A stretch of DNA of 64,000 nt from Thiohalobacter sp. (GCF_027000115.1 NZ_JALTON010000016.1:2118-66117); one strand, 5' to 3'; shown: positions 2,605 to 63,844, counted from the first letter of the stretch. Made by a program: numbers and translations. Notes: generated by a model from the letters alone, not told the origin.

Positions 2605-3177
2605 ATGTCGACGACCGCGGAAGAGAGTCTGCTACACCGCCACCGGCTGGATGTGGACGCCTATTACCGCATGGCCGAGGCCGGCATTCTCGGGCCGGAC
2701 GCCCGGGTGGAACTGATCGAGGGAGAGATCATCGACATGGCACCGATAGGGAGCAGACACGCTGCGGCCGTGAGCCGGCTGGCCCACCTTCTACACCAGA
2801 AAATTGGCCAGCAGGTCATCGTGTGGACCCAAAACCCCCTCCGTCTGGACGAATATTCCGAACCCGAACCCGACCTCGCCCTGCTGCGACCGCAGGAAGA
2901 CTTCTACAAGTCCGCACATCCGAGCCCCAGGGACGTCCTCCTGGTCATCGAAGTGGCAGAATCATCCCTGCGCTACGACCGCGAAATCAAGATCCCCCTC
3001 TACGCCCGCCACGGCATCCCCGAGGCCTGGCTGGTGGATGTCGAGAACGAAGCGCTCACCCTGTTCCGCGAGCCCTCCGAATCCGGCTACCGGCAGGAGA
3101 TCCACCCCGACACCTTCACGGCCATCACCCCCGCCACCCTGCCTGCCCTCGCCCTCGACCTGAGCGGCCTCTTCTGA
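2605..3177 (+). CDS. Uma2 family (DUF820) putative endonuclease
   Basis: 190 aa: ...YYRMAEAGILGPDARVELIEGEIIDMAPIGSRHA...EPDLALL...LVIEVAESSLRYDREIKIPLYARHGIPEAWLVD, the typical Uma2 layout. Confidence 0.75.
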   Translation: MSTTAEESLLHRHRLDVDAYYRMAEAGILGPDARVELIEGEIIDMAPIGSRHAAAVSRLAHLLHQKIGQQVIVWTQNPLRLDEYSEPEPDLALLRPQEDFYKSAHPSPRDVLLVIEVAESSLRYDREIKIPLYARHGIPEAWLVDVENEALTLFREPSESGYRQEIHPDTFTAITPATLPALALDLSGLF

Positions 3178-3375
3178 ACGACAGCGCCCGAACCCGTCGG
3201 ATACGCACCGCGCACCACGGCAACGCCAAGCGGCGCGACGGCGGGCGGTGCCCGCCCTGCGGGATTCAGGGGTGGTACTGGAGCTGCGCGCCGATGCCGG
3301 CCACCGGACTGCCCGCGGCATCCACGGACTTCACCAGGCGCCGCGAACAATCCGTGATATCGGACCTGGATCCCT

Positions 3376-4053
3376 TCAGGCTGGCGCGCGCCCCCGCCGG
3401 GCCAGACCCATCAGGCCGACCAGCCCGGAACCGAACAGCCAGACGGCTGCGGGGACGGGCACGGGCGTGGCGTAGAAATCGAACGACACGTTGAGCCCCT
3501 GGAAGATGAAAGCATCCTGCACCGCACCACCCGGCTGCCCATCCCCATCCCAGTCGGTACTGGTATAAGTCGTGCACGAGTAGACCCACGGGAGATTGGC
3601 ACAACCGTAAGTAACATCCCAGACATTGACGACACCAAAGGGATAACTGATACCGCTGTCGCTCCAGTCAAACAACATGCCCCCGCCCACCTGGCCGGGT
3701 CCGACGGTAAAGGTATAGGCATAGGTTGCCGGCCCCGCATCCGATCCCGTACCGACATAGGTCCAGGTGTGGGTCCCCTCGCCAAACAGGGTCAAGGTCG
3801 CAGACATGTTGTTGTCGAGCAGAACCTGATCCCACACGCTCAGGTTGCCGGTCCCCAACAGTTCGTCTATTTCTCCGAACGTCGTCGCGCAGGGACCGCC
3901 GCCATCGGTGACGAAATTCTGCGTAGTTCCGGAGCTATCGATAAAACACAGACTCCCATCCAGTGCCAGCGGGGGGCGCACATTGAGCGCGAACACCTGC
4001 CCCGAACCCAGCAGGGCTGCGAGGCCCCACACCAAACACCGCTTTCTTCCCAT
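3376..4053 (-). CDS. secreted protein with exosortase-type C-terminal sorting tag (VPLPA/PEP-CTERM class)
   Basis: Start moved to the ATG at 4053, which has AAGGAG upstream. Signal peptide MGRKRCLVWGLAALLGSGQVFA. C-terminus TPVPVPAAVWLFGSGLVGLMGLARRGRAPA (motif + TM helix + Arg cluster). Confidence 0.8.
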   Translation of the reverse strand: MGRKRCLVWGLAALLGSGQVFALNVRPPLALDGSLCFIDSSGTTQNFVTDGGGPCATTFGEIDELLGTGNLSVWDQVLLDNNMSATLTLFGEGTHTWTYVGTGSDAGPATYAYTFTVGPGQVGGGMLFDWSDSGISYPFGVVNVWDVTYGCANLPWVYSCTTYTSTDWDGDGQPGGAVQDAFIFQGLNVSFDFYATPVPVPAAVWLFGSGLVGLMGLARRGRAPA

Positions 4054-60231: not shown

Positions 60232-61362
60232 ATGGCCGGGACCGACAACGGGGACTTCGGGTGCTGGCGCGACGGCAACCGCTTCGAACTGCTGGTCGAT
60301 GGCGGCGTCTTTCTGCCCGCAATGCTGGACGCCATCGGCCAGGCGCGGCAACGCATCCTGCTGGAACTCTACCTCATGGAGAGCGGCCGCACCGCGGACC
60401 GCTTCATCGAGGCCCTGACCACGGCGGCCCGACGCGGCGTGGCCGTTCATCTGCTGCTCGACGATTTCGGCAGCCACGGGCTGCGCACAGCCGACCGGCA
60501 GCGGCTGGTCGACGCCGGCGTGGAACTCTGCTTCTACAACCCCATTCGCCCGGGCAAGCGCCGTCGCAACCTGTTCCGGGATCACCGCAAGCTGCTGCTG
60601 ATCGACAACCACACCGCCTTCACCGGCGGTTTCGGCATCACCGACGAATTCAACCCGGAGACTTCACCCGCACCCTGGCGGGAAACGGCGGTGCGCATCG
60701 AAGGCGAGGTGCTGCACGACTGGCAACAGGTGTTCCTGCGCAACCACGCGCGCTGGTCGCAACGGCCACTGGCGCTGCTGCCGGCAACCCCGCGGGGCGA
60801 CATGCGCGGCCGGGTGGCCGAATCGGTCAGCCTGCAGCGCTCCGCGATCAGGCGCCACCTGCGCCGCTCGATTCGCCGTGCCCGGCGCCGTGTCTGGATT
60901 GCCACGGCCTATTTCATCCCCAGCCGTCGTCTGCGACGGGCGCTGGCACACGCCGCGCGGCGCGGGCTCGACGTGCGGCTGCTGCTGCCCGGGCCGCTGA
61001 CCGACCATCCGGCCGTACGCCACGCCGGCCGCCGCTTCTATACGCGGCTGCTGCGCGCCGGGGTGCGCATCCACGAATACCAGCCGCGCTTCACCCACCA
61101 GAAGGTCGCACTCTGCGACGACTGGGTGGTGATCGGTTCCAGCAACCTGGACCGCTGGAACCTGCGCTGGAATCTCGAAGCCAGCCAGGAAATCCTCGAT
61201 GCCGGTTTCGCCAGCCAGGTCGCCGACATGTTCGAGCACGACCTCGCCGAGTCACGGGAAATCCTGCTGGAACGCTGGCTGGCCCGGCCGGCGCATGAAC
61301 GCTTCGCCGAATGGTTCTTCGGCAGCCTCGACCTGCTCTCGGAACGCTGGCTGGGGCGCTGA
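60232..61362 (+). CDS. phospholipase D family protein (cardiolipin synthase ClsB-like)
   Basis: 376 aa with two HKD motifs: DHRKLLLIDNHTAFTGGFGI and THQKVALCDDWVVIGSSNLD. Confidence 0.82.
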   Translation: MAGTDNGDFGCWRDGNRFELLVDGGVFLPAMLDAIGQARQRILLELYLMESGRTADRFIEALTTAARRGVAVHLLLDDFGSHGLRTADRQRLVDAGVELCFYNPIRPGKRRRNLFRDHRKLLLIDNHTAFTGGFGITDEFNPETSPAPWRETAVRIEGEVLHDWQQVFLRNHARWSQRPLALLPATPRGDMRGRVAESVSLQRSAIRRHLRRSIRRARRRVWIATAYFIPSRRLRRALAHAARRGLDVRLLLPGPLTDHPAVRHAGRRFYTRLLRAGVRIHEYQPRFTHQKVALCDDWVVIGSSNLDRWNLRWNLEASQEILDAGFASQVADMFEHDLAESREILLERWLARPAHERFAEWFFGSLDLLSERWLGR

Positions 61363-61374
61363 GGGGGCAAGGAC

Positions 61375-61648
61375 AGAACGCCACGGAATCCACCGAACCC
61401 GCGGAAAGGATCATTGCAGTTCCGGCAGGATAGGCAGAGTCGCGTGGCAACGCCCCTATCACCACGGGGACAACCGGCAGTTCCAGTAGGATGGGCAAAG
61501 TCGCGTAGCGACGTGCCCATCAGGTTTTTACCACCGATGTGATGGGCGCGGCCCTGCAGCCCGCAGGAATGCAGAGGCCGCAGAGACGCATACGTCGTCT
61601 CCCGGCTCTTCCTCCGGTGATGGGCACGCTTCGCTTTGCCCATCCTAC
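61375..61648. mobile_element. degenerate MITE of the same family (left arm and two core half-sites; right arm not recognisable)
   Basis: Arm agaacgccacggaatccaccgaacccgcggaaagga. Cores: gtaggatgggcaaagtcgcgtagcgacgtgcccatc (61486-61521) and gatgggcacgcttcgctttgcccatcctac (61618-61648). Confidence 0.6.
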
Positions 61649-62265
61649 GGGACGCTCTTGGTGGCAGTGCGGTCGGGTCGGAGCCAGAGGAACAGGCCGA
61701 GCGAGAAGACGGCACCGAGGGTATCGGCCAGCATGTCCTTCTGCGCGTCCCATTCGTCGCCCTGCGAACCCAGAAAGGCGGCGCCGGCATCGCCGCCCTC
61801 GGCGACGGCATACCACCATTCGATGATCTCGTAGCCGGCGGCGACGCTCATGATGGCGAAGAGCGCAAACAGCAGCGCCAGCCCGGTACCGCAATGCCGT
61901 CGGCGGGTCAGCCACTCGGCAATGGCAAAGGCGTAGAAGCCGACCGAAAAATGCCCGATGCGATCGAACTGGTTGCGCTCGGAGCCGATCAGTTCGTTGA
62001 ACCAGTCGAAGGGCACCTCGGCGAAGGTGTAGTGGGCGCCAATCGTGTGCCAACAGAGCCAGACCGACATCAGCAGCAGGGCGGCATTCGAGAACCGGAA
62101 ACGCCGATACAGCCAGGCCAGCACCGCGAACACCAGCACCAGCGGCAGGGCCTCGGCGATCCAGACGGCGCGGGAATGGGGCTCGATCGCGGACCAGATG
62201 AACAGGGCAACGAACATGGCCGCCAGCAGCGCGGCCAGTGACGGACTCGAGCGGGTCAGGAACAC
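61645..62265 (-). CDS. DUF2238 (YjdF-like) inner membrane protein
   Basis: 206 aa and polytopic: ...CWHTIGAHYTFAEVPFDWFN...RNQFDRIGHFSVGFYAFAIAE...GSQGDEWDAQKDMLADTLGA. Confidence 0.7.
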   Translation of the reverse strand: MFLTRSSPSLAALLAAMFVALFIWSAIEPHSRAVWIAEALPLVLVFAVLAWLYRRFRFSNAALLLMSVWLCWHTIGAHYTFAEVPFDWFNELIGSERNQFDRIGHFSVGFYAFAIAEWLTRRRHCGTGLALLFALFAIMSVAAGYEIIEWWYAVAEGGDAGAAFLGSQGDEWDAQKDMLADTLGAVFSLGLFLWLRPDRTATKSVP

Positions 62266-62274
62266 GGCCGACCG

Positions 62275-63591
62275 CTAGCGACGGCGCGCACCCTTGCCGC
62301 GGGCCGGTTTCTTCTTCGCTGCCTTCTTTCTGGTGACCTTCCTTTTCGCTGCCGGCTTCTTCTTTGCTGCGGCCTTTTTCGCAACCTTCTTCCTGGCGGT
62401 CGGCTTCTTCTTCGCTGCAGCCTTCTTGCCCGCCCCCGCCTTCTTCTTCGCCACCGGTTTCTTCTTCACGGGCGCCTTCTTCGCCGCAACCTTCTTCCTG
62501 GCCACGGCCTTTTTCTTCGTCGCAGACTTCTTCTTCGCGGCCTTCTTCCTGGTGGCAGTCTTTTTCGCCACAGGCGCTTTCACGGTGGCAGACTTCCTGG
62601 CGACCTTCTTCTTCGCCGACGGTTTCCTTTTCGCAACGGCCTTCTTCGCTGCCACCTTCTTCTTCACCGCAGCCTTCTTGCCGACGGCCTTCCTGGTGAC
62701 TGCCTTCTTCACCACGACCTTCTTCGCGGCGGCCTTTTTCTTTGCCGGGGCCTTGCCGGCGGCCTTTTTATCGGCAGCCTTTTTCACGGTGGCAGCCGTC
62801 TTGCCGGCGGACTGCCCGCCCCTGGCGGCCGCCTTGCCCGCGGCGGCAGCACCATCGGACTGCTGACGGGCGCGCTGGGCGGCGATTGCTTGTGCGGCGC
62901 GGCTCGGCGCGGCCTTCCCCTTCGCAGGACGGACGGATTCCTTCGGCAACTGGTCGAGCACCCGGACGATGGCACGGAACACGTCCTCGACATCGGCCTG
63001 GCCCTGGACACGGCGCAGCGTCCCCTGTCGACCGTAGTAGTCGATCAGCGGGGCGGTCTGGGTCTCGTACACCCGGAGACGATTGCCGATGGTCTCCTCG
63101 TTGTCGTCGGCGCGATGATGCAGGGTGCCGCCGCAACGATCGCAGACGCCGTCCACGCGCGGCGGGTTGGAGTAGATGTTGTAGGTGGCGCCGCAGGACA
63201 GGCAGGTATAGCGGCCGGTCAGGCGCTGCATCAGGGCGTCGAAGTCGACGTCGATCAGGATCACGGCCTGCAGCGGGCGCCCGAGCTCATCGAGCAGCTG
63301 GTCGAGCGCTTCGGCCTGGGCGAGATTGCGCGGGAAGCCGTCGAGGATGAAGCCCTTGCGCGCATCCGGCTTGCGCAGCCGCTCACGGATGATGCCCAGC
63401 ACGATCTCGTCGGAAACCAGCTGGCCGGCATCCATGGCTGCCTTGGCCATCCGGCCCAGCGGCGTGCCCTCTGCCACCGCTGCCCGCAACAGGTCACCGG
63501 TAGAGATCTGCGGTATCCCATACTTCGCCTCGATGCGCGCCGCCTGGGTCCCCTTTCCGGAGCCCGGCGCTCCCAGCAGTACGATTCTCAT
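62275..63591 (-). CDS. adk: adenylate kinase fused in frame to a Lys/Ala-rich histone-H1-like C-terminal tail of about 220 aa
   Basis: Start at [17 protein letters not shown] (63591). Complete Adk core with a Cys4 LID (CLSCG...CDRCGG), ending around ...[11 protein letters not shown]. The frame stays open through ...[29 protein letters not shown]...[13 protein letters not shown] to the stop at 62275. Confidence 0.85.
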
Positions 63592-63844
63592 TCTGGCCCC
63601 TTCCGTCCTTTGTGATGGTTGTCGCCCCGCCGTTCCACCAAGCCTGGAACGCCATTCACCCAAAGTCATTAAGTATTTTGCATGGGCTTATACAAATTTT
63701 TAGATGGCTCTTGCAGAACCCTCCCGCTAAGCTAACTGCTCACGTTGCACTGAGTCAACGAAGCAAATCGAAAAACTTCTTGGGGACTGGACAGTTAGGC
63801 CCTGGCGGCGTTGTTCGCGCCCACCCTTCGGCCATTCACGCGAC

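Follow-up and report, generated by a model that had tools for sequence, protein, structure and literature searches.

In a Thiohalobacter sp. genome (GCF_027000115.1), one gene encodes a complete adenylate kinase (Adk) that continues, without a stop, into a lysine- and alanine-rich C-terminal tail. This fusion is real and is common in uncultured sulfur-oxidising Gammaproteobacteria. The tail belongs to no family of homologous domains and is retained for its composition. On balance, we lean towards the reading that it tethers the enzyme non-specifically to polyanions, of which nucleic acid is the most likely. In our ranking of ligands nucleic acid comes first and polyphosphate (polyP) second, with bulk or membrane roles after these. 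The DNA analysed is a stretch of 64,000 nucleotides, referred to as the window, and coordinates are positions in this window unless a contig or locus is named.

Adenylate kinase and tail share one reading frame

The tailed adk gene comprises the following features, all on the minus strand.

62275–63591 (−): tailed adk coding sequence, 438 codons followed by a TAG stop (62275–62277); Pfam and NCBIfam matches; start and end the same in an independent assembly
63597–63604 (−): Shine-Dalgarno-like GGAAGGGG, 5 nt before the ATG, read from the sequence
62947–63591 (−): adenylate kinase core, residues 1–215, long-LID type (ADK, 2.7e-57; NF001380, 306 bits)
63547–63573 (−): P-loop GAPGSGKGT, residues 7–15, read from the sequence; eight of nine columns invariant in alignment A1, and S11 at least 90% conserved
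63133–63204 (−): LID with C130, C133, C150 and C153, a putative Zn site (ADK_lid, 5.7e-16); all four cysteines invariant in A1
62788–62946 (−): Ala-rich linker, residues 216–268, net charge +8, containing a predicted helix (residues 229–249, at 62845–62907)
62278–62787 (−): polycationic tail, residues 269–438; 39% K, 28% A, 11% V, 7% R, net charge +78

An earlier note made from the DNA alone had proposed a single frame at 62275–63591 in which Adk runs into a tail of about 220 residues. The coordinates are exact: the open reading frame (ORF) encodes 438 residues and ends in TAG, and the tail, residues 216–438, is 223 residues long. The full protein has a computed mass of 46.5 kDa and a pI of 11.0. 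The homologues all begin with MRIVLLG, which matches the ATG at 63591. A longer ORF starting at 63669 is possible on paper, but GGAAGGGG precedes the ATG at 63591 and the relatives begin with MRIVLLG, both of which argue against it.

Low-complexity DNA is error-prone, and the fusion could in principle come from a frameshift or an assembly error that joins adk to a gene for a histone-H1-like protein. We therefore compared the frame with that of the closest database relative (protein P0002, locus L056), which lies on an ENA metagenome contig from an independent assembly, using a nucleotide alignment without protein guidance. In the core the two are 96% identical; of the codon differences there, 48 are synonymous and 8 non-synonymous. 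Identity in the tail is 62%, and the tails differ by five insertions or deletions, of 3, 30, 6, 12 and 9 nt, each a multiple of three; the final 14 residues and the stop are the same in both genes. In-frame indels together with a shared C-terminus indicate that the tail is a translated region under purifying selection for its frame and its charged composition. The independent assembly thus bears out the frame that the note had wished to see confirmed. The same fusion is also found in hundreds of assemblies, single-contig genomes among them.

The same explanation has a second form, in which the tail is additionally translated from an internal start. Within the tail there is no ATG, and apart from the AAGG that lysine codons supply, no Shine-Dalgarno site precedes the in-frame GTGs; we therefore reject separate production of the tail for this gene. 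Nor is a lysine-rich ORF found after adk at any of 16 loci of tail-less relatives. With this evidence, an artefact or a second product is extremely unlikely.

The core is a complete long-LID adenylate kinase

Residues 1–215 are matched well above cut-off by the Pfam ADK family (PF00406; 2.7e-57, 193.6 bits, cut-off 26.8) and by two NCBIfam models, NF001380 (306.4 bits, cut-off 251) and TIGR01351 (256.2 bits, cut-off 168). The LID is recognised by PF05191 (5.7e-16) and contains the Cys-x2-Cys ... Cys-x2-Cys tetrad of the long-LID, Zn-binding Adk subtype, a pattern that is present in all of the best 120 homologues. These results uphold the proposal of a complete Adk with a four-cysteine LID. In alignment A1, which contains 52 sequences, G7–Q16 (except S11, at least 90% conserved), D33, D84, R88, R123, R127, R160 and R171 are invariant, and R36 is at least 90% conserved; the protein has all of these residues. 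An AlphaFold2 (AF2) model of the core has a pLDDT of 85–97. Adenylate kinase catalyses the reaction 2 ADP <-> ATP + AMP, and the N-terminal half of the protein is a catalytically complete, long-LID, probably zinc-binding enzyme of this kind, judging from its profile matches and conserved residues.

In a comparison with the PDB, the nearest solved structures are Adks of the Bacillus/Geobacillus type (1ZIN and 1P3J), which cover residues 1–213/214. Residues 1–213 align with them end to end (E about 1e-77), and the P-loop, the NMP site, the catalytic arginines and the four-cysteine LID are common to both. The difference lies at the C-terminus: the solved enzymes end at about 217 residues, and no PDB chain covers the protein past residue 219.

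The tail is a predicted disordered polycation

Residues 216–438 contain 72 lysines, 67 alanines, 17 arginines and only three acidic residues (32% Lys, 30% Ala), giving a net charge of +86. The first part is the alanine-rich linker, whose predicted helix (residues 229–249) has an AF2 pLDDT of 61–68; its motif AIAAQRA was considered as a universal feature of these proteins and dismissed, being conserved in nearer relatives only. Beyond residue 250 the AF2 model, built with a 52-sequence alignment, is coil to the C-terminus with a pLDDT of about 50, suggesting that the tail is an intrinsically disordered polycation. By autocorrelation, the basic residues of 269–438 are spaced about every 5–6 positions. 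Lysine makes up 39% of this segment compared with about 1.5% in long ORFs of the genome, which has 66% G+C, and only three ORFs in the whole 2.65-Mb genome carry such a K/A-rich segment.

The tail DNA had been described as a low-complexity cttctt/gcc repeat. This description does not hold: the repeats are degenerate, with periods of 15, 18, 30, 36, 48 and 51 (multiples of three) and 62–85% match, and there is no clean ctt/gcc microsatellite. The related idea that tail length changes by repeat slippage survives in part, in that the length does vary among relatives through in-frame indels. Rapid slippage, however, is not indicated by repeats so degenerate.

The comparison with histone H1 likewise holds for composition but not for family membership. 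The tail scores 18.4 bits against HC2 (PF07382; cut-off 40) and 24.8 bits against hist_H1_lk_Burk (NF038053; cut-off 80), both weak and below threshold. The Pfam scan detected no winged-helix globular domain of the kind that lies between the basic tails of linker histone H1, and the AF2 model has nothing besides the Adk fold, a single helix and coil. A search with the tail alone against 1.84 billion protein representatives gave no significant homologue (five matches, best E 3e-5). Composition correction removes all of these matches, and the fusion partners of similar tails cannot be surveyed in this way.

A closer likeness is to AlgP and PhaF of Pseudomonas, in which a long, disordered, Lys/Ala-rich C-terminal polycation also follows an unrelated N-terminal domain. 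The AlgP and PhaF repeats run to between 9 and more than 25 tandem copies of KPAA (or KPVA/KTAAA), whereas the tail described here has one KPAA, is proline-poor (5% Pro) and consists of KKAAx/KKVxx units containing Val and Thr. Furthermore, the partner here is a metabolic enzyme, and homology is not detectable. The tail may resemble an H1- or AlgP-type tail in how it works, by analogy and without homology to either.

Tailed adenylate kinases are widespread and arose at least twice

A protein search returned 5070 matches within its length limits. The best 120 of these are all 368–467 residues long; the tails, measured in 111 of them, have 153–245 residues with a median composition of 34% K, 27% A and 2% D+E. 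Of 21 genomes in the same family, nearly all encode a long-frame Adk of 386–489 residues. Among 400 genomes sampled evenly across the class, an Adk alignment runs into the tail in at least 62, a floor that counts only the best 150 matches listed. Carriers include metagenome-assembled genomes of Thiohalobacter, Ectothiorhodospiraceae, Thiotrichales, Acidiferrobacterales, Sedimenticolaceae, Natronospirales and Thiobacillus. In a maximum-likelihood tree, the tailed Adks lie on one side of a branch with 100/100 support, and the canonical Adks of E. coli type and of Campylobacterota lie on the opposite side. The tailed gene is the sole ADK-family match in five genomes that are 98–99% complete and belong to four families, which shows that the tail is compatible with a housekeeping role; in these genomes no other Adk is left to fill it.

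Some members of the same lineage have no tail and are 214–227 residues long; some lineages can thus do without it. Gene fission in these relatives is ruled out, since no lysine-rich ORF follows adk at the 16 loci. The tail is thus a character that is gained and lost rather than one half of a split gene.

A similar architecture exists in Alphaproteobacteria. In NF010381 / PRK13808, too, an Adk runs in frame into a Lys/Ala-rich tail, about 90 residues long in the member L057, which comes from an 8-Mb genome of the same phylum. In contrast to the protein described here, the L057 core is of the short-LID type, has no cysteines and so no four-cysteine LID. The Thiohalobacter protein scores 207.4 bits against NF010381 (cut-off 426), matching only profile positions 1–127 and a second stretch, and falls outside this family. 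Because the PRK13808 core belongs to a separate, short-LID lineage, the tail was gained independently there and the architecture arose at least twice. The architecture is thus already catalogued in NCBIfam, but named merely 'adenylate kinase'.

The earlier note had regarded the tail as atypical of a bacterial Adk. In comparison with the solved enzymes, which end at about 217 residues, this is correct. Within its own Adk lineage, however, tails are the rule, and NCBIfam holds a model for another tailed Adk. The survey of Adk lengths in relatives that the note proposed as a check therefore turned against the view of the fusion as an oddity, the tailed form being common in the family and in the class. 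No account of a tailed Adk turned up in full-text literature searches. What we describe joins a well-known enzyme to a tail of well-known type; the combination is widespread, and we found no study of it.

These comparisons bear on the reading that the tail has no specific ligand, being either a tolerated low-complexity expansion or a segment with a bulk role (entropic bristle, solubility aid, condensate driver, or a store of lysine or charge). Such a tail would be expected to look much as this one does in several respects: it evolves fast (62% identity to the closest relative, against 96% for the core), ranges from 95 to 356 residues, is missing from some members of the lineage and has no significant homologue of its own. 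Its composition, on the other hand, is tightly held over dozens of families (K about 34%, D+E about 2%) in genomes where lysine codons are rare, its indels preserve the frame, and a similar tail was acquired independently by an alphaproteobacterial Adk. We therefore consider a tail without a specific ligand unlikely.

Gene neighbourhood and other lysine-rich proteins of the genome

The following features flank the gene.

61645–62265 (−): DUF2238 membrane-protein gene (Pfam DUF2238, 2.6e-53), with a GTG start 9 nt past the adk stop
63676–63695 (−): conserved AT-rich 20-mer TTGTATAAGCCCATGCAAAA, lying 85 nt before the ATG and without variation across an alignment of four related loci
63729–63758 (−): putative promoter, TTGACT, 18 nt, TAGCTT, inferred from conserved columns in alignment A2

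Downstream, the DUF2238 gene is probably co-transcribed with tailed adk, since it starts only 9 nt past the adk stop; no terminator-like site lies between the two genes, and terminator-like sites in the scan occur at chance level. A gene for a PLD/cardiolipin-synthase-like protein (60232–61362, +) converges on the DUF2238 gene. This neighbourhood raises the question whether the polycation holds Adk on the anionic inner membrane, rich in phosphatidylglycerol and cardiolipin, near phospholipid synthesis or respiratory ATP production. Mutants of E. coli adk (plsA) are defective in phospholipid synthesis, which is in keeping with this idea. However, the order adk – DUF2238 – PLD-like gene is common only to the closest relative, L056, the tail contains no aromatic or amphipathic membrane-insertion motif, and nucleic acids are by far the most abundant cellular polyanion. 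A membrane tether is therefore very unlikely.

Upstream, a divergent gene encodes a PPi-dependent phosphofructokinase (NF010675, 654 bits). It lies just past the end of the window, at about 2680–3558 (+) of locus L001, and begins at about 66320 of contig C16. The divergent PPi-phosphofructokinase gene is kept in 12 of 18 related loci from several families, with 70–90% identity and gaps of 137–720 bp. The pattern TTGTATAAGCCCATGCAAAA occurs once each in L001, L022, L027, L031 and L056, always 85–95 nt before tailed adk, and is unique in the genome. Together with the upstream TTGACT/TAGCTT pair it could be a promoter or operator, a candidate that rests on conservation among aligned loci. A promoter scan by consensus scored none at the tailed adk locus, TTGACT/TAGCTT included, and Rfam gave nothing there at E <= 0.1.

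The genome contains two adk genes. The second encodes a plain Adk of 216 residues, also with a four-cysteine LID, on another contig (C37:12509–13072, +; locus L002). It passes NF001380, adjoins a transaldolase gene and occurs in most genomes of the family; in the Adk tree its branch is very long. An E. coli-type Adk was not found in this genome; in six other genomes of the family it is present as a third copy.

Besides tailed Adk, the K/A-rich ORFs of the genome are limited to DksA and a stand-alone protein. The sole DksA (C37:139789–140499, −; DksA_N 1.3e-34, zf-dskA_traR 1.3e-11) is extended at its N-terminus by about 105 Lys/Ala-rich, H1-like residues, an extension retained in 20 of the 21 family genomes. 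The stand-alone protein has 135 residues (C27:51622–52029, −) and consists almost entirely of KKKxA/TRKK units; its HC2 score of 22.5 bits is below cut-off, and from its composition it is probably an H1-like nucleoid protein. We also considered a recent exchange of tail DNA among adk, dksA and the H1-like gene. The matches among them reach only 72–80% and occur in many registers, which reflects compositional similarity and not exchange.

Polyphosphate is an unlikely general ligand

Adk and the polyP kinase PPK1 together give polyP:AMP phosphotransferase activity, on which Ishige and Noguchi reportedly published in PNAS in 2000. This makes polyP an attractive ligand, as the genome has PPK1 but no PPK2. 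In such a scheme, the tail would dock Adk on polyP next to PPK1, and PPK1 working in reverse, together with Adk, would turn AMP back into ATP at the granule surface at the expense of polyP. There are precedents: AlgP is placed on polyP granules by its KPAA tail, which also binds DNA (PMC9239181), a 22-residue basic tail directs Caulobacter Ppk1 to granules (PMC3806658), and overproducing PPK1 in E. coli raises polyP:AMP phosphotransferase activity via Adk (PMC3163519). Caulobacter Ppk1 is the closest of these in design, as a basic C-terminal extension sends a phosphoryl-transfer enzyme to a polyanionic body (PMC3806658). It differs in that its tail has 22 residues as opposed to 223, and in that tailed Adk also occurs where no known polyP kinase is found.

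The PPK1 middle domain is present in 40 of the 62 tailed-Adk genomes (65%) compared with 228 of all 400 (57%), indicating no clear enrichment; by itself this comparison is not informative as an argument. We searched ten of the 22 tailed-Adk genomes without PPK1 for PPK2, and seven of the ten have neither the PPK1 middle domain nor PPK2. Five of these seven, from five families, are 99–100% complete and are missing the PPK1 C-terminal domain too; the other two, in which the PPK1 middle domain and PPK2 are likewise missing, are 98% (G378) and 93% (G402) complete. The tails of these PPK-less genomes were verified and have 170–240 residues with 44–86 lysines. Missing known polyP kinases is no proof of missing polyP in these genomes. 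The Thiohalobacter genome has no PPK2/PAP, and none of the loci examined shows a linkage of adk to ppk. The occurrence of verified tailed Adks in near-complete genomes without PPK1 or PPK2 makes polyP unlikely as the general ligand of the tail, unless polyP is made there by an unknown route. We accordingly regard polyP, which the earlier note had listed among the possible partners, as an unlikely explanation, and docking at polyP granules in the Thiohalobacter cell as an unlikely purpose of the tail; since this genome does carry PPK1, some binding of polyP may nevertheless occur there.

Discussion

Based on these observations, we infer that the tail binds polyanions, with nucleic acid as the main ligand, and that the tailed enzyme shares labour with the plain Adk. 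One 46.5-kDa product would combine an Adk head with a 223-residue polycation of charge +86. The tail would bind cellular polyanions non-specifically and multivalently, and would thereby keep a share of cellular Adk on the nucleoid or on RNA-rich material. Adenylates would then be equilibrated beside the ATP-consuming machinery that acts on DNA and RNA, and the soluble pool would be served by the second, untailed Adk.

Nucleic acid is preferred over polyP because tailed Adks occur in near-complete genomes without PPK1 and PPK2. The other K/A-rich proteins of the genome, the stand-alone H1/HC2-like protein and the tailed DksA, an RNA-polymerase factor, point to the nucleoid as well. There are precedents for binding of nucleic acid by such segments: the KPAA tail of PhaF binds specific mRNAs (PMC12818456), and the H1-like domain of Streptomyces DdbA binds DNA (PMC3643593). 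DdbA and other H1-tailed DksA proteins are similar to tailed Adk in that the same kind of tail is placed on a housekeeping factor, and the DksA of this genome has the same layout as DdbA. They differ in that the tail is N-terminal and that the target of its partner is RNA polymerase instead of nucleotides. Against a nucleic-acid tether stands the gene neighbourhood, which contains no pointer to DNA or RNA; its conserved neighbour is PPi-phosphofructokinase.

A more far-reaching version, which we consider unlikely, is that tailed Adk is a true chromatin component. The protein would be abundant and nucleoid-bound, its +86 tail would help to neutralise and compact DNA, its head would buffer local ATP, ADP and AMP for replication, transcription and DNA-bound ATPases, and the plain Adk would serve the cytosol. 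If this were true, nucleoid state and adenylate energy charge would be physically coupled, and the two Adks would be a bacterial counterpart of the compartment-specific AK isoforms of eukaryotes.

The new observations are the second, plain Adk in the same genome, the divergent PPi-phosphofructokinase gene in 12 of 18 loci, and the tailed Adks in five near-complete genomes without PPK1 or PPK2, the last of which argues against polyP as a general ligand. The automatic annotation 'adenylate kinase' conceals the tail. Because the tail is dense in lysine, it is also expected to be under-detected by tryptic proteomics.

Adenylate kinase is essential and among the best-studied enzymes, and to our knowledge it has always been regarded as small and soluble. 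Here, and in a large proportion of uncultured Gammaproteobacteria, it bears a tail that equals the enzyme itself in length and exceeds most nucleoid proteins in positive charge; in some genomes this tailed form is the sole Adk. The same kind of tail on Adk, on DksA and in a stand-alone H1-like protein suggests a shared address label. If the tail directs Adk to a polyanion, be it the nucleoid, RNA or some other, these bacteria would position adenylate equilibration in space, something that we know of for eukaryotic AK isoforms but not for bacteria.
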